Below are positions 7,735-32,430 of a stretch of DNA of 64,000 bases, in pieces. Made by a program: the position numbers and the translations under genes. A model generated the notes under the pieces. That model was not told the DNA's origin. It saw nothing but the letters and a program-made list of their open reading frames with translations, and did no database searches. Source of the DNA: Parachlamydiales bacterium (GTDB lineage Bacteria; Chlamydiota; Chlamydiia; Chlamydiales; Rhabdochlamydiaceae); contig OY970065.1 of NCBI GenBank assembly GCA_963705295.1, positions 480,001 through 544,000 on the forward strand. Direction: 5' to 3'. Each line of letters opens with the position of its first letter. Position 1 is the first letter of the stretch.

Positions 7735-10677
7735 TTATTGAAACCTAGCCCATTTGAAATCGATGAGGGTGTGGTTGGGCTCTAAGAGTAGGTATTTCTT
7801 TTTCATGAATTGTAGGCAGGTTTCGAAAAGAGGGATGATCGGCATTTCATCGATCAAGATTTGCTCGATACGGATGAGGAGCTCGATTTGCTTTCCTTTT
7901 TCCGTTTCGAGCTGGGCCTCATGCAGCAGGGCTTGCAGGTCAGGATGCGACCATTTGCTGAAATTCATAGGCTCTTCCGGATTGGCAAAGAAATTCAAGG
8001 TGTAGAAAGGGTCGTTGACCCACGGTTGCCAACGGATGAGGGCGATTTGAAAGTCACCGGTTGTCAGTTTGGAGAAGATCGTTTTATAATCGTATCCTTG
8101 GATGGTGGTCGAAATTCCCAATTTTTTTTCCCATTCCGATGATAAAAACTCAGCCGCTGCTTTTCCGAAGACCGTTCGTTGGGTAAACCCAATATTGAGG
8201 GAGGAGAGGGGGATCCCTAACTCTTCGAGACCCTCGGATAAGAGTTTTTGAGCATTTCCTGTTTTGAAAAGAGAAGGATTAGGGGTTTGGCAATGGGATG
8301 TCGGAAGGGGGGAGTAGGCTGGTTTTTTTGGATATTTTAGATTTTCTAAGAGTTGCAGACGATCGATTGCCAAGGCGAGAGCTTTTCGGATTTTATTATT
8401 TTTAAGAATAGGATGGCGCGTATTGCAAACACACCAGTAGAGACCGTGGTCAGGATGAACCATCACTTCATCATCTTCTGTAGGAGTGTAACTATTATTC
8501 CAAGCTCCAAGAGGAGCACCCAGCCATTGAATTTTGTTTTGATAAAACATCTCTTCCGTCTGAGAGTGGTGGCTCGCCGTGATTAAAATCCGGTCCAAAT
8601 GGATGCGTGATATTTCCCAATAATGGGGATTTTTCACAAAGACATAACTGCTATCTCTCTGATTATATTCGATTTTAAAAGGGCCATTACAGACGTAATG
8701 GTTCCCTTCTTCGAAAGGCCAATTCGGTTCATTGATGTCAATTTGGCGGCAAACAGGGGAGAAGAGTGGATGGGCAAGATATTCAAGAAAATTGAGGGAA
8801 GGCGATTCTAATTCTATTTTTAAAGTTAAATCGTCTAAGGCATGAATTCCGAGCTGGTTCATCGCGGCAGCTCCCTTCTTGACGGCTTCGGCATTTTTGA
8901 TGATATAAAAGAGGTAGGCAAAAGCCGTATTGAAACGGGGGGAGACGATTTTTTTCCAAGCGTACTCAAAATCGTAACTGGTGAGAGGTTCTCCGTTAGA
9001 CCAAACGGTGGGACGGAGCCGGAAAAGATAGGTTTTTCGGTCTTCAGAAATCTCCACTTCGTGGGCAATTCCGTTCTCAAGAGACCCTTTCGAACTAATC
9101 CGCATGAGCCCTTCAAAGAGCATCTTTAAAACAAGGGCAGAAACGCCGTCTCCTCCAATTCTCGGATCTAGAGAGCTGACGGGATTTTCTAGGCCGAGGC
9201 GCAAAACTTGAGTTTTTTTAACTTCGTCCCGCCAATAAATCAGCAATTTATCGAGAGACTCGATGAAAAGATTCTGTAGGTGGCTTGTTTCTGTCTCGAG
9301 AAGGTAACCGACAAGATAAGAGTCGTTGAGGGTGAGGGCGATGGAAGCTTTTTTAACTTCGGGTAAATCGAAGGATAAAAGATGGTCTTTGGCTATTTCA
9401 TAAAAAGGGCCGTGCGGGATGCGGAGCATCACGATAAAAAGGTGATCTTTTCTCGAGCTTTTTAGGATATATTGAAAAGAATCGAGTAGAGGCAATTCCG
9501 AAATGTGCAAAAACAGCTGCAGCATGGTTTTTAAAATAGGGAGAGGAAGAATCGCTTGCATCTCGATAGGCGTGATCGAATAAAAGACATTTTCGATCAG
9601 CTCAGGAGAGAGCCCAGGAAGGGCATTTTTAAGAGTGTGCAACGTCTCTTCTTGTTTGATTAGAATGCCGCCATTGAAATCTCGAAATTCGCCGATATTC
9701 TCCTTCAAATAATTCCCTATTTTTTGCCGGGCAGCAAAAAAGTTTAAGGAACCGTCGCTCCTCAAGATGGTGGGATGAGGTGTTAGAAGAATTTTGAAAA
9801 TATAAGCAAAAATAGGTTGATGATCTTTCAGGTATTTCACCAATTGTTTTCTCTCTAGAATGAATTGAGAGAACGAACTCCGTTGTTTGATGAGATTGTC
9901 TACAGAAGCTGTCTCATGATTCTCGACTCGGACACAAATCGCCGTGAAGACAAAATCTTCCGCCGTTTGCATATCAAAAGAGATCATGATCTGGGGGAGG
10001 TCGGTGCTCTGATCGATTTCTTGGCTCAACGTTAAAATGTTGCGCAAGACCTCTTCTTGATTCCGAGTCATAAATACAGCCGGAACGACCCGTTCGATGC
10101 GGGAGAGGAGCTCTTCCTCGAGCCCCAGTTTCAATTTTTTGATCTCAGATAGAGTAAAGTACTGGCTACTGTTTTTTTCGAATTCGACATAGAGGGTCTT
10201 GATCCGATCTTCAGCGCCTTGAAAGGTATAAATGGACCCTTTGACAATTTTTAGATCGGGTAAGAATTTTTGGACAGCCTTCAAAAGTTGTTCCTGATCG
10301 AAGAGTTCATACCGATTCAGATAGATCTGGACTAAAATGCCCACGACCCATTTTGAACCAAATGGAAATTCTAATTGCGTCGGCAAGATTCTCAGGGATA
10401 AATAACGGGTTTTAGGTGAAAGAGAGACGAGACTGAGCAATTTCTTCTTTTTGAAATATTGAGAAGAAAGGAGACGGAAAAGATGGTCAGCCGATCTTTT
10501 CTGAGTGAAATCGTGATCAAAGTAGGCAATCAGCCGATCCCGTTCCTTGAAAATGGTCCGATCCAAAAGTTGAGGGAAGCGATCGATCAATTCTTGAAGC
10601 TTCTGATCTAAAATTGTTAATTTGTTTACTTCCACAGGTAAAACGTATTCTAGCGAACGGTTCATTTTCTCCAACAA
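7735..10677 (-). CDS. Giant fusion protein: about 490-aa unassigned N-terminal region plus C-terminal OppA-type (family 5) peptide-binding domain, no signal peptide
   Basis: SBP5 motifs from about aa 490 (SLDPR, LFEGL, WSNG, CNGPF, KNPHYW, RKALALAIDR). The N-terminus is hydrophilic. Likely start is ATG 10665, after GGAG. Confidence 0.85.
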   Translation of the reverse strand: MLEKMNRSLEYVLPVEVNKLTILDQKLQELIDRFPQLLDRTIFKERDRLIAYFDHDFTQKRSADHLFRLLSSQYFKKKKLLSLVSLSPKTRYLSLRILPTQLEFPFGSKWVVGILVQIYLNRYELFDQEQLLKAVQKFLPDLKIVKGSIYTFQGAEDRIKTLYVEFEKNSSQYFTLSEIKKLKLGLEEELLSRIERVVPAVFMTRNQEEVLRNILTLSQEIDQSTDLPQIMISFDMQTAEDFVFTAICVRVENHETASVDNLIKQRSSFSQFILERKQLVKYLKDHQPIFAYIFKILLTPHPTILRSDGSLNFFAARQKIGNYLKENIGEFRDFNGGILIKQEETLHTLKNALPGLSPELIENVFYSITPIEMQAILPLPILKTMLQLFLHISELPLLDSFQYILKSSRKDHLFIVMLRIPHGPFYEIAKDHLLSFDLPEVKKASIALTLNDSYLVGYLLETETSHLQNLFIESLDKLLIYWRDEVKKTQVLRLGLENPVSSLDPRIGGDGVSALVLKMLFEGLMRISSKGSLENGIAHEVEISEDRKTYLFRLRPTVWSNGEPLTSYDFEYAWKKIVSPRFNTAFAYLFYIIKNAEAVKKGAAAMNQLGIHALDDLTLKIELESPSLNFLEYLAHPLFSPVCRQIDINEPNWPFEEGNHYVCNGPFKIEYNQRDSSYVFVKNPHYWEISRIHLDRILITASHHSQTEEMFYQNKIQWLGAPLGAWNNSYTPTEDDEVMVHPDHGLYWCVCNTRHPILKNNKIRKALALAIDRLQLLENLKYPKKPAYSPLPTSHCQTPNPSLFKTGNAQKLLSEGLEELGIPLSSLNIGFTQRTVFGKAAAEFLSSEWEKKLGISTTIQGYDYKTIFSKLTTGDFQIALIRWQPWVNDPFYTLNFFANPEEPMNFSKWSHPDLQALLHEAQLETEKGKQIELLIRIEQILIDEMPIIPLFETCLQFMKKKYLLLEPNHTLIDFKWARFQ

Positions 10678-10762
10678 TCAAATAATTTGCATTAAATGGG
10701 GGGTGTCCTGTAAATTTGATGGCAATCAAGCTGCCGCTGCAGCAAATTTAATGGAGGTTGTT

Positions 10763-11131
10763 ATGAAAACAATGCAACAAGCCAGAGGGACTGACCCGCA
10801 AGTCCAAGCGATGATGGATGAAATGATATCCCATCCAGCTTGGCTGGGCGATATGACCGGGGTTGAAGCTGAAACCCTTTTGCGTCAGAAGCCATCGTTC
10901 ACCTACTTGTTAAGACAAGGTGAAAAAGGAGATCATTTTTATCTCTCGTATGTCAATGGCACCAATTTTATCCATCTTCCCATTACGATCCTCTACTCTA
11001 CTCACCAATGGTTTTATCAAAACTCTTACCCACACTTCGCGAAAGATTTGGTCACTTTTATACCTGATATTATGCACCAAGAAGCAGCAGAGTGTCATCC
11101 ACTTGAGCAATTCGTAATAATGAACTCATAA
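10763..11131 (+). CDS. Small SH2-like domain protein
   Basis: AWLGDMTGVEAETLLRQKPSFTYLLRQGEKGDHFYLSYV...HLPI follows the SH2 pattern (W.G, EAE.LL, FLVR-like YLLR, Y.LS, H..I). GGAGG RBS before ATG 10763. Confidence 0.7.
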   Translation: MKTMQQARGTDPQVQAMMDEMISHPAWLGDMTGVEAETLLRQKPSFTYLLRQGEKGDHFYLSYVNGTNFIHLPITILYSTHQWFYQNSYPHFAKDLVTFIPDIMHQEAAECHPLEQFVIMNS

Positions 11132-11133
11132 TA

Positions 11134-12468
11134 TTGGATCGAACGAATTTTAGACGTTTTTTAGAGATTTGTTTTCCTGTAATTCTGTTTCTATTCTTAA
11201 TCAATATTACAGGTTATATTGAAAGACTCTTGCTGGCTGATTTTTCAGGGGAGGCACTAGCAGGAGGTCTGAATGGGTTTTTCTTAGCTCGCGTTTTCCA
11301 AACAGCCTGTCTTGCCGTCATTGTTGTCGGTCAGTCATTTGTTGGCCTTTATCATGGGGCTGATCAAGAAAAAAATATTGGGCCTTGCATCTGGCAACTC
11401 ATTTGGTTTTCGGTTCTCTCTACGCTGGTTGTGATTCCACTGGGTTTCTCCGTTGAATGGATTTTATTCAAAAATACTTCAATTTCTAATTCTGAATCTA
11501 ATTATTTTAAACTACTTTGTGTTTTTAATTTTCTGTTTCCTTTAACAAATGCTCTTTCTGCATTCTATTTTGGAAGAGGTATCCTCAAGCCTATCGTCTT
11601 TTTAACCTTGTTTTCTTGCATCCTCAATGTCGTTTTAGATTTGGTTCTAATCTTTGGTTGGGACTTCATTCCTCCTTTAGGGACGACCGGTGCGGCTCTT
11701 GGCAAAGTCATATCCCAAGCTGTTTTATGCCTGAACTTGGCGCTCCTTTTCCTTTCAAAAACGAACCGAGAGAAATTTGGGACCAACCTGTGGAAATTTT
11801 CTCCACGCCTCTTTTGGCATTATATCCGCCCAGGTCTCCATCGTGCCTTGGGGGCTTTCCCAGCCCTGGGTGACTGGGTTCTTGTCTCCCGCTTCATGTC
11901 TCTAAAAAGTGAGCAACACCTGCTTGTCTTTTCGATTGGTAGTACGGTTTTCTACTTTTTGGCTTTTATTGGGGATGGACTATTCCAGACCATGGTGACC
12001 GTAGCCTCAAATTTGATGGGGAAAAAGGAATATTCTAAGCTCTGGAGCTCATTTTTTTCGGGATTCATTCTCCTGGTCGTATTCGGACTTTGTCTCGTTA
12101 TTCCCTTTTTCTTATTTCCTCAGATCATTACAAACTGTTTTAGGAGTTCGTCCTTTTACGGTAATTTACTCGAGTCGTTTGGACAAATGTCGCCTTGGTT
12201 ACTCCTCGCTATTATAGCCTATGGATTGAACGCCCTGGCTTTAGGGCTCGTTGTCGCTGCTAGGGACACCCTCTTTTTATTCTGGTTCTATTGCGGAATG
12301 TGGCTGGTGAGTTTCGTCCCCATCTATTGTTCTATGGAATGGCTCCATTTCCCTCCTGAAACCTTCTGGGCCCTTGTGATGTGCACCAATTTGGTTGCAT
12401 GCTCTATGTTTCTATGGCGAGGATCCAAAGAGAAATGGCAGATCGACAATTGGGCACCTGTAAACTAA
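11134..12468 (+). CDS. MATE family transporter
   Basis: About 12 hydrophobic segments; LNVVLDLVLIFG...PPLGTTGAALG is a MATE hallmark. Confidence 0.88.
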   Translation: MDRTNFRRFLEICFPVILFLFLINITGYIERLLLADFSGEALAGGLNGFFLARVFQTACLAVIVVGQSFVGLYHGADQEKNIGPCIWQLIWFSVLSTLVVIPLGFSVEWILFKNTSISNSESNYFKLLCVFNFLFPLTNALSAFYFGRGILKPIVFLTLFSCILNVVLDLVLIFGWDFIPPLGTTGAALGKVISQAVLCLNLALLFLSKTNREKFGTNLWKFSPRLFWHYIRPGLHRALGAFPALGDWVLVSRFMSLKSEQHLLVFSIGSTVFYFLAFIGDGLFQTMVTVASNLMGKKEYSKLWSSFFSGFILLVVFGLCLVIPFFLFPQIITNCFRSSSFYGNLLESFGQMSPWLLLAIIAYGLNALALGLVVAARDTLFLFWFYCGMWLVSFVPIYCSMEWLHFPPETFWALVMCTNLVACSMFLWRGSKEKWQIDNWAPVN

Positions 12469-12519
12469 TTTTTTAAATTATTCTTTACTATCTTAATAAC
12501 TTCCTGTTAAAGAAAAAAT

Positions 12520-13812
12520 TTGACAGGAGAACGAATCGAGATGTCTTCAGGGAAAGGAACCGATCTTATTGATCGGGTCGCTTGTATTGTTTTAGCAGGA
12601 GGTCAAGGGACGAGACTCTTTCCTCTGACGCAGACACGGTGTAAACCTGCAGTCGGATTTGGAGGTCGGTATCGACTCATCGATATACCACTTTCCAATG
12701 CTTTAAACTCAAAACTTACAAAGCTTTTTGTTATTTCTCAGTATTTTGCATCCAATCTTCATCAACATATTTTAGCGACCTATAAATTCGATATGTTTCA
12801 AAAAGGGGACATTTCGCTCCTTTGTCCGGAAGAGGATGTTGGGAAAAAAGTCTGGTTTGAAGGAACTGCAGACGCTGTTCGAAAAAATCTCCAACACATC
12901 ATGAAATCTCCAGCCGAGTACTTTTTGATTCTTTCGGGAGATCAATTGTACAACATCGATCTTGCCGATTTGTTGAACTATGCGAGAGAAAAAGATGCCG
13001 ATCTTGTCATTGCTTCGCTCCATGTTCAAGAACCTGAAGCCAAGCGGATGGGCTTGCTCCGTGTCGATAGTGATCTGCATGTGAAAGAATTTAAAGAAAA
13101 ACCAAAAGAAAAAGATGTTCTTGGGTCTTTGTGCACAACCCATAAAAACAAGTCGTGTTACTTAGCCTCGATGGGGATTTATGTTTTTAAAAGAGATGTT
13201 CTCGTTTCACTCCTGCAGGAACAACCCGGAAACGATTTTGGCCACCATCTAATCCCTTACCAAGCGAGTAAAGGGGGAACCTATGCTTATATCTACGATG
13301 GTTATTGGGTCGATATCGGTACCATTGCTTCATTTTTCGAAGCCAATATGAGTCTTTTAGATCAAAAAAACTGTCTCCAAACCTACAATGAATCGAATCC
13401 CATTTATACACGTCCACACCACCTTCCCAGTCCTCTTGTCATCCAGACGAAAATCAATCGATCCTTCATCAGTCAGGGAGCGATCATTGAAGCGGATGAA
13501 ATCGATCATAGTATCTTAGGGGTACGGTGCCGTGTTGGGAAAGGGACAAAGATTCGAAATTCGGTTCTCATGGGTCATCAGTCTTATACGCCACCATCCC
13601 ATCAACAACCGCCTCTTCCCAAGGAGTTTACGATCGGAGAAAACTGTCTCATCGAAAAGTCGATCATCGATGAACACACCCGCATCGGAGACAATGTCCG
13701 ACTCGTCAATGAAAAGAAATTAGAAAATTATGATGGAGATGGGGTCTACATCCGTGACGGAATCATCATCGTCACGAGTGGTACACAGCTCCCAGATGGT
13801 TTTTCAATTTGA
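12520..13812 (+). CDS. glgC: Glucose-1-phosphate adenylyltransferase
   Basis: LAGGQGTRLFPLT..RCKPAV.FGGRYRLID, GTADAV, ASMGIY, YWVDIGT. Alternative start is ATG 12541. Confidence 0.96.
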   Translation: MTGERIEMSSGKGTDLIDRVACIVLAGGQGTRLFPLTQTRCKPAVGFGGRYRLIDIPLSNALNSKLTKLFVISQYFASNLHQHILATYKFDMFQKGDISLLCPEEDVGKKVWFEGTADAVRKNLQHIMKSPAEYFLILSGDQLYNIDLADLLNYAREKDADLVIASLHVQEPEAKRMGLLRVDSDLHVKEFKEKPKEKDVLGSLCTTHKNKSCYLASMGIYVFKRDVLVSLLQEQPGNDFGHHLIPYQASKGGTYAYIYDGYWVDIGTIASFFEANMSLLDQKNCLQTYNESNPIYTRPHHLPSPLVIQTKINRSFISQGAIIEADEIDHSILGVRCRVGKGTKIRNSVLMGHQSYTPPSHQQPPLPKEFTIGENCLIEKSIIDEHTRIGDNVRLVNEKKLENYDGDGVYIRDGIIIVTSGTQLPDGFSI

Positions 13813-16281
13813 AGGCGCGATGGCCTCGACAACTCCTGTCAACGGGTTTAAGAAAACCTTCGGTGCCAAAACTCTCCCTTCTGTGAAATCAAAGAGATCA
13901 TCGAGACTTCCTGCGATCCTTTCATAAGACGCCTTAGGAAGGGGTTTAAGATTCCAATTTTCAATGATGAACCTTAAGACAGAGGTATGATCGGTCGTCA
14001 CATGGCTCATATAATTGTCTTTCGCCCAGGGTGAGATGACAAAAAACGGGAGTCTCTGTGCATGTCCCGCGCGCAGATCGGCCTCTGGGATACCTGCTTT
14101 GACACCCCGTCTTGCAATCTGTCCTTTTGGGTCGAGTTTCGGATTCACTTCCCAAGCGGAACTTTTAACTAAAGGTGGCGGTACATGGTCGTATGTTCCG
14201 TTTCCTTCATCCCATTGGATAAAAATAGCTGTTTCGTCCCAGAAGGGTGAGTTCATCAGTTTGGTGACAAGATTAACGAGCGCAATCTGGTTATCGAGGG
14301 CATTAGAATTGGTCCGATGACCATTTTGATAGGTCGGCAACCGGATATACGAGACCGCCGGTAGAACACCAATATCGAGGGCATTGAAGAAATCATCAAT
14401 ATCGTAATTGTGATTCGCTTGATCTTGTTTTCCAACATTTTCTAGCGAACTATAAGGTGCCAAGTGAGGATTGGACGTCGAAGCGAAATAATCGAAAGGG
14501 TGATCCCCATCTAAATAATCGATCTGAGGTCCTACGATTTGAGCAATGACATTCGTGGATCCGGCGGGAGGCGTAAAATTAAGAGAGGTATGGAACAATA
14601 AAACCAGATTATTAAATTCTGGCATGATGGCTTGGAGCTCCGCAATCACGGAGGGTGGAAATAAAGCTTGATAAGGGAGAACAATCGCATTCGGGTCGCT
14701 CAGTGATTGTTTGGGCAGCCACCCACCTCTGAAACATCCCCACGTCACATTTTTCTTGTTGAGACGATCTCCAATATTTTTAACCTTAGGATTGATCAGG
14801 TTGGAAGTAAATTGCTGTGCAAATTGCACAACGCCTGAAACACCCGGGAATTGAATGGATGCCCTAAATGTAGGATCCGTTTGAAACCAAAAAATCAAAA
14901 ATTCTAAGATCGATAGATCATTTTTCGATGCAACCCAGTTGTAGAGGACAGTATTGTTAAATGTCGCCAGAATATCGCCCCACTTAACAAATTGAACACC
15001 CTCTGGAATCGGAGGCAATTGAGGATTAGCGCTCGCTGTATTGGCGATGGCTGTGAGAAGATTGACATCGATGAGAAGATCGGGAAACTCTGGAATCAGT
15101 TCAGAATTATTGCCCGATCCCCAGTTGATATTGCCGATAATACTTTCACCATATCCTGTGGTAAAGTTTCTATCACTGGTCGCATAGAACTGAGCGTAAT
15201 TCCAAAGTCCTGTAAACGTATTTCCATCCCAATAATCCATCGCAATGTTGGCACCTTGCCCATAGGTCGCATCGAATGATTTTTGGACACCTCCAACGGT
15301 GTAGAGGATGGGTGGTGGTGTCGTTTGTTTATAGACAAACCGGTCCATCAATCCATTATCGACATCGATTTGTGTCCGGGTATATCCATTCGATTCAAAA
15401 TTGGTGAGTTCTTGGTTTGGAGCCAGTCTTGTCGGATTTACTCTTCCACTTCCATTTTGGCCGATATTCCGGTTCGTTGTGAGGTAATTTCCTCCTGTCA
15501 AAGGATCAATGGTTAAGAGATTATCGGGTATTTCTGTATCTTCTTTGGGGAAGAAAGGTGTTTCTCCGGGCAGATTTGCTGCGAAAGGATAGGTCCCAAA
15601 CATCGCATCAAAAGGAACATTTTCATTGAGAATGACAACTACATGTTGGATGGGAGTCGTCGTTTTTTTGTGATCTTTAATTTTCACCCCTGTCATTGAC
15701 TTGGATGGCAGCGAGGGAATCCATCCCTCCGGAGCCTCGGGGAATTCTAGTCGTTCAAAATGAGAAGTGACGCTTTTAACATTAAAATGGACCTTTGCAG
15801 AAGAGCTCGCTTTAAATGTGATGACAAAATGGTACCGAATTCTTTCACCTTGTTGAAGAACATCAAAGACGGGCGACTCTACACTAAGGCTCGATTTAAC
15901 TTTTTTCCCTTTACAAGTTCGAAGAGGTGGCTCTGGCTCCAATGTGCAGACATCAAAGATATGTTCATCTCCAACACAGAGGATCTTAGGATCTGGCAAA
16001 TCGCCATTGAAAATATATTTCTTCAGCTCTGCAGCTACCGTCGTAAACTCACCTTCTCTCACGCGGTATCTAAAAGAAACACTTTCGAGTTTCGCATTTT
16101 TTGGAATCTTAAAGGAGACGTCTACGGTAGCTGCTCCATTTTGTGGAATAACAAGAGTGATTTTTCCGTTTTTCTCTCCAAAGGTTTGTCCTTTATCATT
16201 TTCTACCTTCCATTTTAAATCGTTGTTGGAAGCAAAAAGGAAGGTAAAACAACTGAGCATTAAACAAAGAAGTATTTTCAT
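13804..16281 (-). CDS. Secreted phosphoesterase of the phospholipase C / acid phosphatase AcpA family, with N-terminal extension
   Basis: Signal peptide; IQHVVVILNENVPFDAMFGTYP, NGLMDRF, LPAVSY, WDEGNGTYDHVPPP, ISPWAK, DHTSVLRFI. Confidence 0.85.
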   Translation of the reverse strand: MKILLCLMLSCFTFLFASNNDLKWKVENDKGQTFGEKNGKITLVIPQNGAATVDVSFKIPKNAKLESVSFRYRVREGEFTTVAAELKKYIFNGDLPDPKILCVGDEHIFDVCTLEPEPPLRTCKGKKVKSSLSVESPVFDVLQQGERIRYHFVITFKASSSAKVHFNVKSVTSHFERLEFPEAPEGWIPSLPSKSMTGVKIKDHKKTTTPIQHVVVILNENVPFDAMFGTYPFAANLPGETPFFPKEDTEIPDNLLTIDPLTGGNYLTTNRNIGQNGSGRVNPTRLAPNQELTNFESNGYTRTQIDVDNGLMDRFVYKQTTPPPILYTVGGVQKSFDATYGQGANIAMDYWDGNTFTGLWNYAQFYATSDRNFTTGYGESIIGNINWGSGNNSELIPEFPDLLIDVNLLTAIANTASANPQLPPIPEGVQFVKWGDILATFNNTVLYNWVASKNDLSILEFLIFWFQTDPTFRASIQFPGVSGVVQFAQQFTSNLINPKVKNIGDRLNKKNVTWGCFRGGWLPKQSLSDPNAIVLPYQALFPPSVIAELQAIMPEFNNLVLLFHTSLNFTPPAGSTNVIAQIVGPQIDYLDGDHPFDYFASTSNPHLAPYSSLENVGKQDQANHNYDIDDFFNALDIGVLPAVSYIRLPTYQNGHRTNSNALDNQIALVNLVTKLMNSPFWDETAIFIQWDEGNGTYDHVPPPLVKSSAWEVNPKLDPKGQIARRGVKAGIPEADLRAGHAQRLPFFVISPWAKDNYMSHVTTDHTSVLRFIIENWNLKPLPKASYERIAGSLDDLFDFTEGRVLAPKVFLNPLTGVVEAIAPSN

Positions 16282-16344
16282 GGCCTAAGAATGTAAATTA
16301 AAACTTTATTTGAAGTCAACCCTGTTATATTGCATTCTAGATTT

Positions 16345-18000: not shown

Positions 18001-18057
18001 AGCACAAAATTTTATCTAAAGATGAAAAATAAGTAAACTTATAGCAATAATAGGAGA

Positions 18058-18441: not shown

Positions 18442-18450
18442 AAAATTTCT

Positions 18451-22029: not shown

Positions 22030-22108
22030 GAAATTATTAACAGTGTAGTTAACAATTGCATTTTTTTGAATGAAGATTTACCATATTTATCTTATTTTGG
22101 AGATTTTC

Positions 22109-23314: not shown

Positions 23315-24256
23315 ATGAACGAAAAAACAATTTTAGTGACGGGTGGTGCGGGTTTTCTCGGTTCGCATCTATGTGAGAAACTTCTTGCACGGGGTCACCG
23401 GGTTGTTTGTCTCGATAATTTCTTCACCGGATCGAAAGAAAATATTGCCCCTTTTTTAAAAAATTCTTTATTTAGTCTGATCGATCACGATGTCTGTAAT
23501 CCATTTCACATGAAAGTCGATGAGATTTATAATCTCGCGTGTCCTGCATCTCCGATCCATTATCAATCCGATCCTGTCCGAACGACGAAAACCGGAGTTT
23601 TGGGTGCGATCAACATGCTCAGCCTGGCGCACGCAAATCAAGCGAAAATCTTGCAAGCTTCGACGAGCGAAGTTTATGGTGACCCACAGGTCCACCCGCA
23701 ACATGAAGGGTATTGGGGAAATGTCAATCCTATCGGGAGAAGATCGTGCTACGATGAGAGTAAACGGCTTGCTGAAACGTTATTCATGGACTACTTCTGG
23801 CAACATAATCTTCCGATCAAATTGGCCCGTATTTTCAATACGTATGGTCCCAACATGCACCCAGAAGATGGAAGGGTTGTTTCCAATTTCATTGTACAAG
23901 CTCTTCAAGGCAAACCTTTGACGATCTATGGGGATGGAAGCCAGACCCGATCTTTCTGCTATGTCGATGATTTAGTGGACGGGTTGATGACCCTCATGTC
24001 GACCGATCTCGCCATTACGGGCCCCATCAATTTTGGAAATCCTTCCGAATTCCGGATTCTCGAGCTTGCTGAGCTGGTATTAAAAATGACCGGTTCTTCC
24101 TCGAAGATTATTTTTCATCCACTCCCCTTGGATGATCCGAAGCAACGAAAACCCGATATTACTTTGGCCAGAAATACCCTTGCATGGGCGCCCAAGATTT
24201 CTCTTGAAGAGGGACTCTCCTCGACGATAGCTTATTTTAAGAAAATTATTCTTTAA
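23315..24256 (+). CDS. UDP-glucuronate decarboxylase (UDP-xylose synthase family)
   Basis: [42 protein letters not shown]. Confidence 0.92.
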
Positions 24257-27137
24257 CCTTTTCTTTTCCTTTACCACTTCCCATTCGGACAAGTTCATTC
24301 AGGCGGCTTTCGGCCATCTCCGATATCCCTTGAACAATTTTAACCAGCTGGTGGTGGAGAGAAATAACAGGGTGCTGCGGGGCAGGCGATTGTTTGGTTT
24401 TCTTTTTAACAAGGGTAAAACCACGTATCTCATCCATCGCTTCTTGATCGACTCTTTTTCCGTGGGCGGCTAGTTCAATAGCCTGCATACGCCAAGCAAT
24501 ACCGGAAGGGTTTTGTCCTGTAGCGTGTCGAAACCGATCAGGATATTGAGCTCCGTAGCCGATATTCAACTCGGCGACGACCCTTTGATGTTCAGGAGTC
24601 TCTTGGTGGTCTCTGGAGGCTCTATAATCTTCTAAATTGTGGATCATTCTGAGTTGTCCAAACCTCTGAGCATGGAGAAGTTTCTCGATATGCTCATCTA
24701 AAAATTGAGCCAAGGTTAAAATATTGTCGCCGAGTGCAGAAAGGTTTTTTGTCTCTGGAGATTCGATGAGACATTCTAGAGCTTGCTTGAGGAGTTTTAA
24801 GGTATAGAGAATGTCACCGCATATCGCTGCTTTAACAGGATCCATCGACACTGTCGTCATCAACTTTTCCGCTTTACTGAGGCATCTTTCCAAAATAGAA
24901 ATAGGAGTTTCTAGGGAGTCTCTAAAAAAGGGTGTGAAAGGATGGACCGCCGTTTCTTTTGGTCTCCCCTGAAAATACGAAGTGGTGTCGCCGGAAGGAA
25001 ACTGTGGCAGTAAGATTTTTAGACACGAAAATGTACTATCCATCAGCTTAATAAGATCTCTGAATTCCACTTTCTCCGATAAAAGCCACTGAAGAGCTAA
25101 AGGCACGGGAAATTGATGTTCGCTTAAGAAAAGTTGACTGGTAAATGGGTATCGATGGAATACGGTGCCATAACGGACCGCCTCCAAAACATCTGCCGGT
25201 TTATTGATTTGGCGAGCCATTTCTACGTGATCATGACTAAATTCATCTGTCTTTAAACAGGAAGTGATCGCTTGTTCGGTCATGATACAGCACGGCTTGA
25301 CAGTCGCGTAGGTGAGATAAGGGAGAAACCGTGTATTTTCTTCTCGGATAGCTTTTCTCAAAAGATGGGCGGAAGACAATAAAATCGCATGATGGTGGGC
25401 CACATGTTTCAAGCTATCCGCAGCAAATTCTGTCGGAGCCTTGAGGGTAGAAATAAAAAGCCTCTGAAGATGGAATGGATGACTCGGCTTCATCTTCTCT
25501 TCTTGAGGAGGAAGAGGTTGAGGAGCGGGTAGATCCTCTTCTTTAAATGTTAAATCGAACTTGATAGAAGGTTGCCGTCTTTTTTTGGGTGGATGAAAAA
25601 GGGTGGTGAAAGCAGAAGAAGGTGGAGAAGTATCTTTAATCTCTTCCAGTTTTAATGTCTTTAGAACAGTCTCTAGAACGGTGAGTCCTTGGTAAAAAGA
25701 TTGGAGAAGAACGGAAAGCTGGAAAACCAGTCGATAGCTTAAGAGAATTCCCTTTTCCAATTCTTCCATGCTCTCGCGACGCTGGGCACTTTTTTTCAGT
25801 TTTTCAAACTCCGCTCTACTATGGACCCGGGATTTTTGTTTTGCTTCTTCTAAACGCTTTAACTCCTCTATTAATCTCCGTTGCTGAAAAGCCAATTGTT
25901 GAAAACTATCAGCGAGTTTTGATGAATTTGCAAGCATTTCCAAGCTATCTTCCAAACTCCTTGTCTTAGCTCCGTCCCCAAGGACCATTTTCATTAGATT
26001 GCCACCGAGAGAGAGATTTCCAAGCAGTGCTTCTTTCTCTTCTGTAGGAGAATGTGTTTGATCAAAAATGGGGGGCTTTTCCTCTTGCTGAATCCGCTCA
26101 GTCTGCTCTTTCGATAAACATGAAGAAAATAAATCTAAACGGTCGTGGCATGATTGTTTTAAAAGAGTAATTTGTTTCTTTAAGAACGATAAATCGTCTA
26201 AAAATTGACGGATTGCAGAAAACAATACGGGGGAAGTATCTCCCATGAGCTCCATAATCCATTCAAATTGCTCATGAAAAATTCTCTTCCTTGCTTGATA
26301 GACACGGAGCAATCGTTCCATCCGCTCGAAGAACAGTTTATTATCATGAAAGGTTTCTCGAACCGGATCAGGACACCTTTCACTTTTTGCTGCTTTGCAT
26401 AGTGCTGCTAATTCTTTTCTCTTTGTAGAGGGGTGGAACTCTTTTTGAATACCCATCATCTCGACATCCATCACAGCAAGTGTTTGGTCCATAAAAAGTT
26501 GGAAATGCCGGATAAAATAAGGACAGTTTTCAGAAGGTGGTTTTTCTTTGGCCTCCAGCTTTCCTAGAGCTTGAGCAAAGGTTTTCCCGTTAAATTCAGG
26601 TCCTGACATGAAGAATTTTAGTGCCTGCTTGAGACTCTCTGCATGAGGCTCCTTTAAAATGGGAGCCACTTGAGGAAATCGACTCTCAAGGTGTTTGAGC
26701 AAGGCTTGAAACCGTTTTCCATTGTCAGCCCTAAATGCATCGAGGGTTAGGTAGTCTAAAAAACCTGCAAAAATTTTGATGCTTTCATGAGGTAGGTGGC
26801 ATTTCTTTTCTAAATCAGAAAAGAAGGCGATCGTGAAGCATAAAATCGCATCGCGGATCTGCATATTTTCGAGATCAGGATGGGCCGCTTCTTTCAACGC
26901 AGACCACGTCGTTTCCCGTGGGGGTCTTAGATTTTGAAGCATCAGCCCAATCAACGATCTCCGGACTTCTTCTTTTTTGGTCTGGGTGGCGAAATCTCCT
27001 TCGGTCAAAACGGGAAGTTGGATCGTACCCGTCGGGTCGACGGCTTCTTGGATAGCTCCCCGTAAAGAAGGATCGGTCATCAATCCCTTCAATAAATCGG
27101 TAAATACATTAGTGCCTAGTTTTATTGGTGGGCTCAT
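24246..27137 (-). CDS. Large hypothetical helical/coiled-coil protein, possible effector
   Basis: 963-aa ORF with no recognised domain. It has a coiled-coil segment ([18 protein letters not shown]) and a Pro-rich linker containing PPKKRR. Confidence 0.6.
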
Positions 27138-27274
27138 AAACGCTAACTATTTTACTTTATTAACCCGTTTAACTCCATTTAATGCTCAGGTAGCAATAAA
27201 AATATTGATTTATATTGGGCTCAGGCAGAAAATTGGTGCAATTACTTTAAGAATGACTAAAAAAAGGAGTTTTT

Positions 27275-27562
27275 ATGAGTGGATCAGTTCAACTTTCTGC
27301 AGATCGTCCTCAAGCCCATCCGTTGGTGGTCAATTTAACAAAACATTCTGCCTGGCTTGCCGATCTTAATATCAGTGACTTATCGATTGTCCCTGATGGA
27401 GACAAGTTTAATTTTAATTTTCGTGTTGACGGAAAGATAAGAACAGTCACTTTTAACGCTGACCTAAAGAGTGGCAAGTTGCGTTTCAAAAATGGTCAAC
27501 CGCACGAATGCGAAACTGTAGAAGAATTAATTCAGGAAATTTTCCACCATTGCAGAGCATAG
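27275..27562 (+). CDS. Small protein paralogous to the SH2-like protein at 10763, with an internal deletion
   Basis: AGGAG RBS. Aligns by eye: HSAWLADL/HPAWLGDM, GDKF/GDHF, NGQPH/NSYPH, LIQEIFH/FIPDIMH. Confidence 0.7.
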   Translation: MSGSVQLSADRPQAHPLVVNLTKHSAWLADLNISDLSIVPDGDKFNFNFRVDGKIRTVTFNADLKSGKLRFKNGQPHECETVEELIQEIFHHCRA

Positions 27563-27586
27563 TTTTTGTTGTCTGCGGAGGGGCAA

Positions 27587-29014
27587 ATGGCAGCAAAAGT
27601 GAATCAAGATTACGGTCATGAAAGTTCCTTTCAAGGGTCTTTGGACGATCGGTATCAGCAGCTAACGAAACATCCTTCCGGCAGTGTGAAGGAGCTGGGT
27701 TCGATCGTTTGGCCGTTGGTGTTGTCGCTTCTCTCGACAAGTCTGATGGGGTTTTGTAACCGACTTTTTCTATCTCATTATTCGATAGAAGCCCTTGAGG
27801 CATCGGTCAGCGCAATGAACTTGGCACTTCTGTTTCAAATTCCGTGCATGAGAATCACCTCCATTGCGCAGGTTTTAGTGGCTCGTCTTTCTGGGGCACA
27901 ACAATTTAATAAAATTGGCAGTGTTATTTGGCAGATGATCTGGTTTTCCCTGATCACGATGGTTGCAACGGTTCCACTCGGTCTGGTTACTGGTCATTTC
28001 TTCTTCCGAAATACCGTTATAGAGGCAGCCGGGAGTCTTTATTTTGCCTCGCTGATGTTTGGTAATTTCTTATTTCCACTGGGTGCAGCATTGGCCTCTT
28101 TTTTTACCGGAATCGGTAATACGCGCATGATCATTGCCATGACGCTGATGGCCCATGTTTTGCATGTAACCCTCGATTATTTCCTCATTTTTGGAATTCC
28201 TGGATTTTTAGACCCACAAGGAGCTTTTGGTGCTGCTGTAGCAACGATTGTGGCCGAAGGATTTTATTGTTTGCTTCTTTTCGTGCTCTTCTTAAGAAAG
28301 AGAGAGCAAAAATTTTATGGCACTTCCGCGTGGCCTCTGCAGTTTTCTGTTTTGAAAGAAGGGATCGTGCTCGGTCTTCCTAGAGCGATCTCGAAGTTGC
28401 TCATTTTAGCGGCTTGGGCAGCATCTGTAGCCATTTTGACCTACAAGGGAGGAGATTACCTCCTTTCGTTTTCGCTAGGAGCAAGTATTTTTACCTTATT
28501 TTCCTGTTTTAACGAGGGTATTGGTCAAGGTCTGATGACGGTGGTCTCTTTTTATTTGACAGCAGAGAAAAAGCAATCTCTTTTTACGATTCTACGCTCG
28601 GCGGTGATTTTATTGATCGGTGGACTGGCTCTCCTTGCAGGGTTCTTGATCATCTTCCCTGATCTGATCGTTAAGACGTTTTTTGCAAATCAACTTTCTA
28701 CCGATCAAGCACAAATTCTGCTTGCATCGTGTTACGGCCTCTGGTTCTTTTTTCTTTCCGAGGGAGTCTCTTGGATTGGGTATAGCATTCTCAATGCTTA
28801 CAAAGACACCAAGTTCATCATGATTTATACGACTTGCACGGTCTTTGTCTTCAATTACCTTCCTCTCTATTTAGCGTTTCATGTGGGGAATTGGCCTGCT
28901 GAAAGAATTTGGTGGCTTATGGGGATTCCGTGTTTAGCATCTGCGCTGGCCTATATCTTTCGGATCCGGCATAAATTTTCTGGCTTTGAGAAATTCATGG
29001 AGAGATCTTTATGA
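27587..29014 (+). CDS. MATE family transporter
   Basis: LHVTLDYFLIFG...PQGAFGAAVAT; shares IWQ.IWFS with the first MATE; GGAGGG RBS before ATG 27587. Confidence 0.9.
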   Translation: MAAKVNQDYGHESSFQGSLDDRYQQLTKHPSGSVKELGSIVWPLVLSLLSTSLMGFCNRLFLSHYSIEALEASVSAMNLALLFQIPCMRITSIAQVLVARLSGAQQFNKIGSVIWQMIWFSLITMVATVPLGLVTGHFFFRNTVIEAAGSLYFASLMFGNFLFPLGAALASFFTGIGNTRMIIAMTLMAHVLHVTLDYFLIFGIPGFLDPQGAFGAAVATIVAEGFYCLLLFVLFLRKREQKFYGTSAWPLQFSVLKEGIVLGLPRAISKLLILAAWAASVAILTYKGGDYLLSFSLGASIFTLFSCFNEGIGQGLMTVVSFYLTAEKKQSLFTILRSAVILLIGGLALLAGFLIIFPDLIVKTFFANQLSTDQAQILLASCYGLWFFFLSEGVSWIGYSILNAYKDTKFIMIYTTCTVFVFNYLPLYLAFHVGNWPAERIWWLMGIPCLASALAYIFRIRHKFSGFEKFMERSL

Positions 29015-32000
29015 ATCTATCCACCTCCCATCTCCACTGGCTTGAATCTTTTAAATCTCATTTGGTTCCTTTAACGGAAGAAAGTCGTGAGAAAATCGCT
29101 GAGACGTTATTCAAAATTCCGACACCTCAGCAACAATTTGAAGATCAAGATGATTTTTTAAACTGGATCGGTGAATCGATTCCTTGCATGCAATGGACGA
29201 TCCAAGAAACCTATCCGAGTTCTCTGTCCATTTATTTTCTTTTCAAGCCTTCCAAAGATATTTCGCTGGACGAATTCCTTTTAGATTATCTTCGAAAATG
29301 GATTTTGCCTGATAAGCACCTCCGTCTATTTTCTTTTTGTAGCCATCCTTTTAGGTTGAATGGGCAAGGCGAGTTTACTGTCTTAGAAGCCCACTTTTTC
29401 GTCCATGAACAATCGACAGCAAAACTGCTTCAGGATACCCTTCCCTCCCTGCAAAAGGAGATAACTTTTCTTTTGAATTTTCCCTCTTTTTGCAAAGATT
29501 TCCTCGAGCTGAAGATCGTGACGTATCCCGATCGTCCGGTACTCCTGCTCAATAAACTGACGGAGATTTCAAAAAAACATCACAAAAAACTCGAATCCGA
29601 CCTATTTTCAGAAATGGGCCGCTTCTTGGTCCTTTCGTCGGCCGAATTTAAAAAGAGAAGATCTTCCCACACAGTGCTTCGGATCATTTTTTCACACGAT
29701 TTATTGAAGAAGAAAATTCTCAAAGAGGTGAGGCTTTTTCCAGAGAAAAGACAACTTTCTGTCCGGCTTCTTTCCTCTGAGCTGATGTTCCCTTTCGGAA
29801 ATAAAACCGTCTTAGGACTTGCGATTGTTCTCCATCTTCCCGACCCTTACGAGTATTTTGATGAGCAACATATCCTTCTAGCGATTCAACAACTCTCATC
29901 GTTGATGCAAATTGTGCAGGGATCGTTTTACGCCTCCCAAACATCGCACGATACGGTTCGATCACTCTATGTTGAGATCGAAAAAAGAGATGGGACCGAT
30001 TTCACCCTTCAAGAACGAAAATTAATTCAAGCACATCTAGAAGAAAAACTCAAAGAGAGAATCGAGAAATTATCCCCTTCCATTTTTATGATGGGAAATG
30101 CTGAAGAGGTGATGAAAAACATTTTCATGTTAAGCGGCGAGCTCAATTCTCCGTTTGATATCCCTCAGGTCATCATATCGCTCGAGAAACAGACAACAAC
30201 CGATCTCTATTTCACGATCGTCCTTGTTCGCTCGCGAAAACCGTCCGACCCTTCTTTGCAACACTATTTTGCGAACATCGAAGATGATATCACCTTTTTA
30301 CCGGAGAAAGAACAAGTTGTCGGTTATTTGCCCATGGACCGAGTCAAGGAGGCGTGTGTTTTCCAATTAAAAATTCCACGCTTTCCATTTACCCGGTGCG
30401 ACTCTTCCACAAATTTTTATCTTGCCCGAAAAAAAATTCTCACTCTTCTCACCCAAGTTCTCGGCGAGGTTCGGGATTACAATGGAGGGATGCTCCTAAA
30501 ACAGGGAGAAGTTCTCTCACAACTGAAGATCAACCTCCCGTTTGTTTCTGCCGAACTCCTTGAAAATCTTTTCTATTCGATCACACCGATCGAAATGCAG
30601 GCGATTTTACCGTTTCCTGTGCTCCAAGATTTTTTAACAGCCGCCTTAGAAATGACCCAAAAAGAGTTGCCAAAACGAGAAAGTTATGGTTGCTCGATGC
30701 AGCAAAAAGAAGGGTATTCGTTTGCGATTTTGCGTGCGAACGACTTTTCTCTCAAGGGATGTATTGAGGAGGCACTGAGAAAAAATACAGCCGTTGTTTC
30801 ATTTTCCATCTCGTATCAAGAGAGCCTTTTGATCGGCTATCTTTACACGTCTCATGACTTGCAAAATCAAATGAGCTTTTGCACGGCTATTCGAGAAGGA
30901 ATCGAAGAATGGAATAAGAAAATCAAAAAGCTCAGAGTTCTACGTCTCCATTTCAACGATTGGTCTTACTCGTTGGATCCAAGAATGGGAGGCGACACCG
31001 TTTCTTCCATTATTTTGAAAGGTCTCTTTGAAGGGCTGACAAGGCGCGGGAAAGATGGGACTCTCGCTTTGGCCGCTGCTGAAAGAGTTGAAGTCTCCGA
31101 TGATCTCAAGCATTACACGTTCCATTTGAGAAAATCGTTTTGGTCGAATGGCGATCCCGTTTTAGCTCACGATTTTGAATATGCGTGGAAAAAGATTCTT
31201 TCTCCTCATTTTAATACTTCTTTCGCTTACCATTTCTATCCGATCAAAAATGCAGCAGCCGTCAAAAAAGGGCAATTGCCCATCGATCAACTTGGAATCA
31301 GTTGTCTCAATGAGGCAACGCTTCGCGTAGAACTCGAAGAACCGTGCTCGTATTTCTTAGAGCTCTTATCCCATGCTATTTTTTCACCCGTCAATCACCG
31401 TGTCGATCAAAAACATCCCAATTGGTTCACAAGAGAGGGAGAAGCGTATATCTGCAATGGACCGTTTTATCTTTTAAAATCCCATCCGCATTGGGGTCGG
31501 TACGAGCTGGCGAAAAATCCCCGCTACTGGGATGCAGGAGAAGTCGAGCTCGATAAAATCATTCTTCTCAAAGCCGATATTCCGACCGCTCTAGAAATGT
31601 ATAAACGAGATGAGATTGATTGGATTGGAAGACCAGCAAGCCCTTGGGATGGATCGTATTCGTCGTCGTGCAATGAAACCGTCCACATCTCGAGCACCTA
31701 CACCGTCTATTGGTACGTTTTCAATGTGCAACGATATCCGTTCCATAATAAAAACCTTCGAAAAGCCATTCACCACTTGATCGACCGAAAAGAACTCCTC
31801 GATACATACGGAGGCATCGGAACACCTGCCGTGACACCTCTCCCCATCTCTCATACCCAGCACAGTCACCTTCCCATTCCCAAAAGTTCCCCCGAGCTGG
31901 CTCTCGCCTATTTTGAAAAAGCTTTGGAAGAACTCCATCTTCAGCGCGAACAATTTCCCCCCATCGGCCTCATGTGTCCGACAGGTGGCACTCGGTACCA

Positions 32001-32430
32001 AATGGCTCAAGCGATCAAAAAGAAAATCGAAGAAACCCTCCAGATCCCGTGTTATATCGAAACGTATCCATGGGGAGTCCTCTTCGAAAAGATGACCCAA
32101 GGAGAGCACCATATCGGAGCCATGGGATGGACAGCTCTTGTCGACGATCCACTTTACACCTTAAACGCGTTCAAACACGTCCACGAGAGAATTAACTTTT
32201 CTAAATGGGAACATCCTCGTTACAAAGAACTCCTTGATAGCGCCAATCGGGAGCTCGACCCCCAAAAACGTCGCCATATCATCGGAGAGAGCGAAGCTCT
32301 TCTCATCGAAGAAGTTCCCCTGATGCCTTTCTATTACGAGATGCAACAATACGCCAAGAAGAGTCATGTTAAACTCCCAGCAAACTGGGAAGTCAAAGAC
32401 ATCGACTTCAAATGGATCTCAATGGTCTAA
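29011..32430 (+). CDS. Giant fusion protein: about 640-aa unassigned N-terminal region plus OppA-type domain, no signal peptide; paralog of 7735-10677
   Basis: SBP5 motifs from about aa 643 (SLDPR, LFEGL, WSNG, CNGPF, KNPRYW). Start overlaps the MATE stop region. Confidence 0.85.
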   Translation: MNLSTSHLHWLESFKSHLVPLTEESREKIAETLFKIPTPQQQFEDQDDFLNWIGESIPCMQWTIQETYPSSLSIYFLFKPSKDISLDEFLLDYLRKWILPDKHLRLFSFCSHPFRLNGQGEFTVLEAHFFVHEQSTAKLLQDTLPSLQKEITFLLNFPSFCKDFLELKIVTYPDRPVLLLNKLTEISKKHHKKLESDLFSEMGRFLVLSSAEFKKRRSSHTVLRIIFSHDLLKKKILKEVRLFPEKRQLSVRLLSSELMFPFGNKTVLGLAIVLHLPDPYEYFDEQHILLAIQQLSSLMQIVQGSFYASQTSHDTVRSLYVEIEKRDGTDFTLQERKLIQAHLEEKLKERIEKLSPSIFMMGNAEEVMKNIFMLSGELNSPFDIPQVIISLEKQTTTDLYFTIVLVRSRKPSDPSLQHYFANIEDDITFLPEKEQVVGYLPMDRVKEACVFQLKIPRFPFTRCDSSTNFYLARKKILTLLTQVLGEVRDYNGGMLLKQGEVLSQLKINLPFVSAELLENLFYSITPIEMQAILPFPVLQDFLTAALEMTQKELPKRESYGCSMQQKEGYSFAILRANDFSLKGCIEEALRKNTAVVSFSISYQESLLIGYLYTSHDLQNQMSFCTAIREGIEEWNKKIKKLRVLRLHFNDWSYSLDPRMGGDTVSSIILKGLFEGLTRRGKDGTLALAAAERVEVSDDLKHYTFHLRKSFWSNGDPVLAHDFEYAWKKILSPHFNTSFAYHFYPIKNAAAVKKGQLPIDQLGISCLNEATLRVELEEPCSYFLELLSHAIFSPVNHRVDQKHPNWFTREGEAYICNGPFYLLKSHPHWGRYELAKNPRYWDAGEVELDKIILLKADIPTALEMYKRDEIDWIGRPASPWDGSYSSSCNETVHISSTYTVYWYVFNVQRYPFHNKNLRKAIHHLIDRKELLDTYGGIGTPAVTPLPISHTQHSHLPIPKSSPELALAYFEKALEELHLQREQFPPIGLMCPTGGTRYQMAQAIKKKIEETLQIPCYIETYPWGVLFEKMTQGEHHIGAMGWTALVDDPLYTLNAFKHVHERINFSKWEHPRYKELLDSANRELDPQKRRHIIGESEALLIEEVPLMPFYYEMQQYAKKSHVKLPANWEVKDIDFKWISMV

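Follow-up and report, generated by a model that had tools for sequence, protein, structure and literature searches.

SgrR-type regulators use a family-5 solute-binding protein (SBP) domain as a ligand sensor inside the cytoplasm. In the TRAP and TTT systems, a solute-binding protein is genetically coupled to a secondary transporter and not to an ABC transporter, and there the binding protein is extracytoplasmic and serves import. Aspartate kinases with separate ACT regulatory subunits also exist. We know of no MATE transporter that has dedicated cytoplasmic partner proteins, and our literature searches found none described. The only characterised bacterial SH2 domains are effectors of Legionella, and chlamydiae do not occur in the available part of the paper that established bacterial SH2 domains (Kaneko et al. 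2018, PMC6208348). The N-terminal segment of the 180-kDa glutamate dehydrogenase is a likely metabolic sensor, and similar ACT variants occur in aspartate kinases, according to the accessible part of another report (Lazaro et al. 2021, PMC8175468). Here we analyse a 64,000-nucleotide stretch of the genome of a Parachlamydiales bacterium (assembly GCA_963705295.1, contig OY970065.1, positions 480,001 to 544,000), referred to below as the window. Three genes stand together twice in it, and they encode an SH2-family protein, a MATE transporter and a fusion protein in which a predicted ACT-like array is joined to an OppA-type SBP domain. To our knowledge, no system is built like this combination of SH2 protein, MATE transporter and cytoplasmic OppA fusion. 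Each part belongs to a known domain family. An earlier note, made from the letters of the window, had suggested that it may be an undescribed sensing and export unit. Neither the three-gene set nor an SH2 protein of chlamydiae is described in the papers listed by our literature search, in which subscription-only papers were not covered. Our results are best explained if three genes form a conserved functional unit in chlamydiae other than the Chlamydiaceae and the window contains two paralogous copies of this unit.

The genes of the two copies are as follows.

7735-10677, minus strand: fusion protein 1, 'short' type, a 980-residue open reading frame (ORF) with SBP_bac_5 in its C-terminal half
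9220-10677, minus strand: predicted ACT-like array of fusion 1 (residues 1-486)
7735-9219, minus strand: OppA-type family-5 SBP domain of fusion 1 (residues 487-980)
10751-11131, plus strand: SH2-domain protein 1 (small1), 126 residues from the likely ATG at 10751
11134-12468, plus strand: MATE transporter 1, 444 residues, polytopic, beginning 2 nt past the small1 stop
27275-27562, plus strand: SH2-family protein 2 (small2), 95 residues, degenerate, with an internal deletion
27566-29014, plus strand: MATE transporter 2, a 482-residue ORF beginning 3 nt past the small2 stop
29011-32430, plus strand: fusion protein 2, 'long' type, 1139 residues, its start overlapping the MATE 2 stop by 4 nt

All six ORFs lie where the earlier note had placed them, and Pfam finds SBP_bac_5 in both fusions, MatE in both transporters and SH2 in small1. 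In copy 1, fusion 1 and small1 are read divergently from likely starts that are about 85 bp apart. Copy 2 is compact, with a 3-nt gap followed by a 4-nt overlap, which agrees with the tight operon that had been described. The gene extents of copy 1 need one correction. The longest ORF of small1 (10622-11131, plus strand) has a TTG start at 10622 and would run over the 5' end of fusion 1; the start is most likely at 10751 instead, because homolog lengths and an identical stored protein agree on it. The start of fusion 1 is probably at 10665, the identical stored protein having 976 residues. The paralogs are strongly diverged, as had been claimed. The two fusions share 38% identity over 972 columns, the N-terminal region included, and the two MATE transporters share 29% over 421 columns (E 2e-54). 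The pairwise match of small1 with small2 is marginal (17%, E 3e-4); small2 has no Pfam match and is matched by the small-protein family profile at E 2.5e-13.

The source genome is a single 2.13-Mb contig, and the closest named homologs come from Rhabdochlamydiaceae metagenome-assembled genomes. It encodes two fusions, one SBP-less paralog of their N-terminal region, three plain OppAs and three MatE-bearing genes. Since two of its three MatE-bearing genes adjoin its two fusions, the pattern is unlikely to be due to chance.

The same linkage is found widely in other Chlamydiota. The N-terminal region of fusion 1 was searched against 400 scored genomes, and relatives were found in 360 of them. 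One family with genomes of 1.0-1.2 Mb, which is probably the Chlamydiaceae, has none (0/29). The matches come in three ORF sizes, which are about 650 residues (SBP-less), about 1000 residues (fusion 1 type) and about 1150 residues (fusion 2 type). From 150 listed matches, 60 loci were picked, spread over families and with long contigs preferred, and about 8 kb was fetched on each side; 45 of them are fusion loci and 15 are SBP-less loci. Within 8 kb on either side, 27 of the 45 fusions have a MATE gene, 26 have the small protein by profile search, and 23 have both. The SBP-less paralog serves as an internal control, and none of its 15 loci carries a MATE or a small protein. In a reverse test, 40 loci not sampled before were centred on matches to the small-protein profile. 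A fusion was present in 35 of these, a MATE in 31 and both in 29, and several of the misses are at contig ends. The earlier note had staked its proposal on co-location in other genomes, and we found homologs linked in at least seven of eight families despite rearrangements; MATE linkage occurs in seven of the eight families sampled through fusion loci, the exception being a family designated f3 (0/8 loci).

The order of the genes varies and their adjacency persists. Among 55 fusion-MATE pairs, 31 have fusion, SH2 and MATE in this order and all on the same strand, in 15 the fusion and SH2 genes are followed by an inverted MATE, and three are divergent like copy 1; the gene order of copy 2 was found in none of these 55 pairs. 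The genes of the 31 co-directional sets follow one another with median gaps of -1 nt and -4 nt, and 26 and 28 of the respective junctions are 20 nt or shorter or overlapping, figures that use longest-ORF starts, so overlaps may be exaggerated. ORFs of the 85 fusion- or SH2-centred loci were also clustered. The SBP/fusion family was found in 79 loci, the small protein in 65 and the MATE in 58. No fourth recurrent family was found among the 85 loci, the next one occurring in nine. Across all 100 fetched loci, the next largest cluster covers 12 loci, 10 of them those of the SBP-less paralog, whose neighbourhood is conserved and of housekeeping type (rpsA, nusA, infB, rpe, efp). Because only its three families recur, the triad moves as a unit through changing surroundings. 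A plain OppA adjoins 26 of 79 fusions, which is frequent and not constant. No fusion of SH2 to MATE or to the fusion protein was found among proteins of 259-2000 residues, which is weak evidence.

Local variants of the module were also seen. In three loci, two or three tandem SH2 genes stand between fusion and MATE (L088, 4556-5900; L101, 7735-9696; L105, 8032-9193). Locus L045 (G187:C1:46000-65999) has three fusion genes within 12 kb (6812-9781, 9921-12923 and 15286-18297) and a single SH2-MATE pair placed after the second fusion, which is a local fusion expansion.

Evidence for joint duplication of the parts came from trees of 57 fusions and their 57 partner MATEs (FastTree maximum likelihood, LG+gamma). 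The 20-member clade of 'long' fusions is an exact bipartition in the MATE tree with a support of 0.971, and the five-member clade that includes copy 1 of the window is likewise exact in the MATE tree, with a support of 0.993. The patristic distances of fusions and MATEs are correlated (Spearman 0.92). This shared split does not merely reflect the species phylogeny, because several genomes, including the source genome, hold both types. As judged from the split, the module is duplicated as a whole unit. The SBP domains of all 83 fusions group together in a single clade, separate from those of 31 plain OppAs (support 0.83), and this points to a single fusion event.

The SH2 protein and the MATE are also present or missing together. 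The small-protein profile matches 101 of the 400 genomes, and the MATE profile matches 245 of 400 at E<=1e-40. The MATE matches fall into two classes, namely the module class, with E below about 1e-130 and located at triad loci, and a weaker, more widespread class. When the SH2 and MATE match tables are read side by side for the 89 genomes of the source family, 29 have both a strong SH2 match and a module MATE, one has SH2 only, one has MATE only and 58 have neither. The SH2-only genome is 85% complete.

One could argue that the linkage is simply inherited gene order without functional meaning. Chlamydial genomes are generally known to have conserved synteny, and the sampled genomes are related. 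We consider this very unlikely, and the data already disfavour it. The flanks of the triad are not conserved, whereas those of the SBP-less paralog are, and at least four arrangements keep the three genes adjacent. Duplication of the whole unit and the joint presence or absence of SH2 and MATE also speak against neutral inheritance.

Several observations weigh against a strict coupling of the three proteins. The sampled genomes are related and the loci were picked from listed matches, so that the linkage counts measure breadth and not independent events. A MATE gene is missing from the fetched 8 kb on either side in 18 of the 45 fusions. At three loci of another family the fusion and MATE genes overlap and there is no SH2 gene; the SH2 adaptor would be dispensable there, since the fusion-MATE pair stands without it. 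The N-terminal domain is present in 86 of the 89 genomes of the source family, and so in most of the 58 that have neither SH2 nor MATE. In family f3 it is present in 22 of 23 genomes, SH2 in 0 of 23 and MATE in three of 23, all of the weaker non-module class, and neither SH2 nor MATE was found in the eight fetched loci of this family. The same holds for genera g3, g5, g7 and g9 of the source family. They have the N-terminal domain in 9/9, 10/12, 7/7 and 4/4 genomes, no match to the MATE profile and two weak SH2 matches, one each in g5 and g7. Because the fusion persists alone in f3 and in these genera, it appears to work there without SH2 and MATE, and this persistence sets a limit to the idea that service to the exporter is the sole role of the fusion. 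Taken together, the shared paralog split and the co-occurrence of SH2 and MATE strongly suggest that fusion, MATE and SH2 are functionally coupled. The sensing and export unit of the earlier note thus stands as far as this coupling goes, and has to be widened by a role of the fusion that is independent of the exporter.

The C-terminal halves of the fusions are clear family-5 SBP domains. SBP_bac_5 matches them with 196 and 200 bits (cut-off 32.4), and the closest solved relatives are OppA 8are (2.7e-83), DppE and the murein-peptide protein MppA. The scores for the OppA equivalog NF011684 (141 and 149 bits) are below its cut-off of 947. A crude hydropathy scan found a hydrophobic N-terminal 12-mer in eight of 83 fusions, neither of the window fusions among them. 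Of the 31 plain OppAs encoded nearby, 27 have such a stretch, most of these with a lipobox-like Cys. The lack of a signal-like N-terminus and the presence of an ACT-like array support a cytoplasmic location of the fusions, as the earlier note had assumed. Nothing in these results points to export, which was the other outcome that would have spoken against the proposal of the note. The database names that we saw for fusions call them peptide ABC transporter substrate-binding proteins, and this naming is probably misleading. As in the SgrR-type regulators, a family-5 SBP domain would thus be at work in the cytoplasm. The fusions differ from SgrR in having no DNA-binding domain (SBP_bac_5 is their only Pfam match) and in having ACT-like modules as partner domains. 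Any output must therefore go through protein contacts. We also looked at the W-x-x-D-x-x-D-P motif, the first Asp of which we take to bind the peptide amino group in OppA and DppA. This pocket test was uninformative on ligand class, as that Asp is missing in fusions and plain neighbours alike.

The fusions could instead be exported by a non-classical route and serve a standard Opp permease as oversized binding proteins. Their SBP domain is a well-conserved relative of OppA, a plain OppA often adjoins them, and the plain OppAs are likewise encoded far from the single OppBC-like permease pair of the genome. The earlier note had stressed that no opp permease genes are near either copy. It is correct that all eight BPD_transp_1 permease matches of the genome fall outside the window; the absence of a nearby permease does not set the fusions apart, because the same is true of the three plain OppAs. 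Two other features make export hardly credible. These are the missing signal peptide and lipobox, in contrast to the plain neighbours, and the 485-640 residues of ACT-like array, a cytoplasmic allosteric fold whose paralog is tied to aspartate kinase.

The first 485 (short type) or 640 (long type) residues or so of the fusions have no Pfam or NCBIfam match. A model built from a 65-sequence alignment has a pLDDT of 90.7, and four ACT-like units can be recognised in its DSSP string; fusion 1 lacks the first of these. The top Foldseek match, at a probability of 0.99 and E 9e-7, is 7jsr, the 180-kDa glutamate dehydrogenase of M. smegmatis. The whole-model TM score is only 0.13, which is low, as expected for a flexible multi-domain chain. 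VIA-align also puts this glutamate dehydrogenase first (Z 8.2) and finds ACT domains at residues 57-156 with Z values of 6-7.8. Language-model neighbours of the region are GDH_ACT1/2/3, GDH_HM1 and GDH_2nd, with scores of 0.76-0.86, which we treat as leads only. Two findings count against this assignment, namely that the Pfam ACT and GDH_ACT models match none of 65 N-terminal regions at E<=1 and that the Z values are middling. By predicted fold, we take the region to be an array of three or four ACT-like modules. Two other candidates were set aside. Histone H2B, the sole match of the region against PDB sequences (E 0.3-1.8), was taken as chance, and the biotin and lipoate ligases found by VIA-align over several segments (Z 5.7-7.1) were taken to share an alpha/beta arrangement and not homology. 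The sensor segment of the 180-kDa glutamate dehydrogenase is thus the closest described counterpart of the array by both Foldseek and VIA-align. The chlamydial array differs from it in having no match at the sequence level and no dehydrogenase domain, and it is either joined to an SBP domain or stands alone.

The stand-alone form gives a hint at what such an array may do. In the source genome it is encoded as follows.

G000:C1:2002437-2004712 (locus L006, 1285-3776), minus strand: aspartate kinase and SBP-less paralog pair
Locus L006, 1285-3018, minus strand: SBP-less paralog, a 578-residue ACT-like array, starting 4 nt inside the aspartate kinase stop

The kinase has 253 residues and matches only positions 4-243 of models of about 407 residues, which is the catalytic domain without ACT. 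It is the only aspartate kinase of the genome; the other AA_kinase-family match is a 242-residue ORF and is probably UMP kinase, given its size. The pair recurs in 12 of the 15 SBP-less loci (L060-L063, L065-L067 and L070-L074) and in none of the 45 fusion loci. From gene order, the two proteins resemble an aspartate kinase that has been split in two, its regulatory subunit being very large. As in the known aspartate kinases with separate ACT subunits, a catalytic-only kinase would be combined with a separate ACT-type protein. The presumed chlamydial regulator is much longer (580-760 residues) and has several ACT-like units, and its role is read from gene order. The simplest reading is that the ancestral role of the ACT-like array was that of a separate allosteric subunit acting on a partner. 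Because the paralogous array pairs with aspartate kinase, a regulatory, partner-binding role is plausible for the fusions also. The ACT-less kinase and the large ACT-like protein provide a testable model for the function of the N-terminal region.

The same observations can be turned into a different explanation, in which the fusion is mainly an allosteric metabolic regulator, which would sense amino acids or peptides and act on an enzyme or pool, and MATE and SH2 are co-regulated neighbours, for example for overflow export, that never contact it. The paralogy of the array to a protein encoded after an ACT-less aspartate kinase fits this, and so do the lineages that keep the fusion without SH2 or MATE and the 18 of 45 fusion loci that have no nearby MATE. 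We regard it as possible and still unlikely. The junctions are overlapping or near zero in most co-directional sets, and the fusion and MATE trees have exactly the same paralog split. In addition, no metabolic enzyme gene recurs beside the fusions, and aspartate kinase was found in none of the 45 fusion loci.

The membrane component is a true MATE transporter. The MatE model of Pfam (PF01554) matches two stretches in each of the two transporters, with 52.7 and 74.2 bits (cut-off 24.9). The TIGR00797 scores of 89.9 and 104.2 bits are below the cut-off of 147.4, and both are divergent members. A 59-sequence profile of the module MATEs matches the solved transporters Aq128 (1.4e-25), NorM-NG (1.4e-20), NorM-VC (3e-20) and DinF-BH (6.6e-19), over about positions 10-450 of its 455. 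Because these matches to solved Aq128, NorM and DinF proteins are full length, it is a MATE and not a member of another branch of the MOP superfamily. In the crude hydropathy scan both MATEs have 10 or more hydrophobic segments, and the remaining four module proteins have none. Two MatE repeats and many hydrophobic segments are shared with NorM/DinF-type antiporters. The closest organisational parallels, TRAP and TTT, differ from the module on two counts. The binding protein of the module has no export signal, and its membrane part is a MATE, from an exporting family, and not DctQM or TctAB.

The small protein, called 'SH2-like' in the earlier note, proved to be a genuine SH2 domain by sequence profile and predicted fold. 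small1 matches Pfam SH2 (PF00017) with 22.8 bits against a cut-off of 21 (22.1 bits for the long ORF), and Pfam SH2 is found at E<=0.01 in eight of 26 family members. A profile of these 26 members was compared with PDB sequences, and only SH2-containing chains are among the matches listed (the best 60 of 106 at E<=1), with the SH2 of p85-alpha (5e-5) and the N-SH2 of SHP2 as the best relatives. The AlphaFold model has a pLDDT of 86.3. Foldseek against the PDB gave 229 matches at E<=1e-3, with an SH2 domain in every one among the matches listed; the relatives include SOCS1/2/4, Spt6, Grb14, Grb10 and Src, with TM scores of 0.5-0.78. One family member has the automatic NCBI name 'SH2 domain-containing protein [Simkaniaceae bacterium]'. 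By our reading of the HMMER alignment, which assigns the Arg and His columns to betaB5 and betaD4, R55 of small1 is the FLVR-type Arg and H75 the betaD His. The His is kept in 65 of 73 members. Two features count against the explanation that we favour. Only 51 of 73 members have retained the phosphate-binding FLVR-type Arg, and the internal deletion of small2 removes the strand that bears it. A complex prediction for the SH2 protein (17-126) with fusion 1 (91-980), with own alignments, scored 0.00 (mark 0.32) and is evidence neither way.

The chlamydial proteins resemble the Legionella effectors, as far as these are covered by the available part of the source, in having a genuine SH2 fold in a bacterium, and most members keep the FLVR-type Arg and the betaD His (PMC6208348). 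They differ in being stand-alone domains of about 120 residues whose genes share a conserved operon with those for a transporter and for a binding protein of the cytoplasm, and by our reading of the alignment the alphaA Arg is mostly replaced. Given that the characterised bacterial SH2 domains described in that source are all effectors of Legionella (PMC6208348), the small protein could be a secreted type III effector for phosphotyrosine proteins of the host, and its place in the operon would then mean co-regulation. Chlamydiae infect amoebae and other eukaryotes, these genomes also encode longer SH2-like ORFs, and the non-chlamydial clusters that come nearest in language-model features consist of SH2 proteins from eukaryotes and giant viruses, which is a lead only. 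We find this improbable on the genetic evidence. The SH2 gene adjoins a fusion in 35 of the 40 SH2-centred loci, usually with overlapping junctions, and its presence tracks the module-type MATE. The protein diverges in step with the module, and in copy 2 it is degenerate in an intact operon. None of the genes that recur in the loci encodes a chaperone or has another role in host interaction.

The longer SH2-like ORFs are a separate group. The source genome encodes a second SH2-like protein of 248 residues (G000:C1:1470976-1471722; locus L120, 1976-2722, minus strand). The small-protein profile matches this protein in the C-terminal part (E 2e-4). It has no Pfam match and looks unrelated. By our reading, its motif is more canonical, with an Arg in the first helix. 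ORFs of 240-290 residues have weak SH2-profile matches in many chlamydial genomes, and a 734-residue ORF (genome G346) has several. These longer ORFs may be effectors.

How the three proteins could act together is a matter of interpretation. We hypothesize that the cytoplasmic fusion and the SH2 adaptor gate or load the NorM/DinF-type exporter, and we would put the chance of this at about even. The fusion would bind an amino-acid- or peptide-like ligand of the cytoplasm through the SBP cleft, the ACT-like units or both. Through the SH2 adaptor, it would then gate the MATE allosterically or hand the ligand over, so that export would depend on the cytoplasmic ligand pool. We infer that the soluble pair acts on the exporter because the genes are kept adjacent, duplicated together and gained or lost together, and because the pair consists of ligand- and peptide-binding modules without enzymatic or DNA-binding output. 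The genome encodes four Hanks-type kinases, and the SH2 target could be a residue that one of them phosphorylates; a motif without phosphate is the other candidate. A stronger version, which we think rather unlikely, is that the SH2 protein is a switch inside the bacterium. It would read phosphotyrosine, another anionic mark or a ligand on the sensor or the MATE, and in this way couple receptor to exporter. The mark would be written by one of the bacterium's own Hanks-type kinases, and the result would be an 'inside-out' form of binding-protein-dependent efflux. If true, SH2-phosphotyrosine signalling would for the first time be seen to act inside a prokaryote and not on the host of one. A circuit of peptide export, re-import and sensing that includes the neighbouring plain periplasmic OppA is speculation.

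The other genes of the window that lie around the two copies are the following.

4529-5962, minus strand: AAA/ATPase_2-type protein, 477 residues, downstream of the plain OppA
6078-7688, minus strand: plain OppA-type lipoprotein SBP, 536 residues, with a hydrophobic N-terminus and lipobox, 46 nt downstream of fusion 1
13804-16281, minus strand: phosphoesterase-family (phospholipase C-like) protein, 825 residues
18972-22029, minus strand, and 23315-24256, plus strand: sugar-nucleotide cluster
22070-23314, plus strand: transporter of the tryptophan/tyrosine permease family (324 bits), encoded about 4 kb upstream of copy 2
24246-27137, minus strand: ORF of 963 residues, divergent from copy 2 and matched by no Pfam or NCBIfam model

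The sugar-nucleotide cluster encodes a cytidylyltransferase, a dTDP-glucose dehydratase-like protein, an RmlD-like reductase, a dTDP-4-dehydrorhamnose epimerase and a further epimerase, which suggests the synthesis of a rhamnose-containing surface glycan. In the fetched loci, the tryptophan/tyrosine permease shows no recurrent linkage with the module, and the 963-residue ORF is not a recurrent neighbour of it. A promoter scan of the divergent region of copy 1, the region upstream of copy 2 and the region downstream of fusion 2 found no promoter-like sites. A terminator scan of the same three regions found one site, which is inside the small1 gene and within shuffled expectation. One soil-metagenome DNA run contained a small share (0.07) of the sampled sequence words.

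If the three proteins cooperate, the module would be a new way to control or load a secondary exporter. An import-type extracellular binding protein would be used inside the cell, alongside an SH2 domain, which is regarded as a hallmark of eukaryotic tyrosine-kinase signalling. Bacterial SH2 domains would then be known from a second phylum besides that of the Legionella effectors, and in a seemingly housekeeping context. The module would also offer a way to learn which compounds environmental chlamydiae export into their hosts. If the family that lacks the N-terminal domain is the Chlamydiaceae, as is probable, the module marks a capacity that the animal pathogens have lost or never gained.

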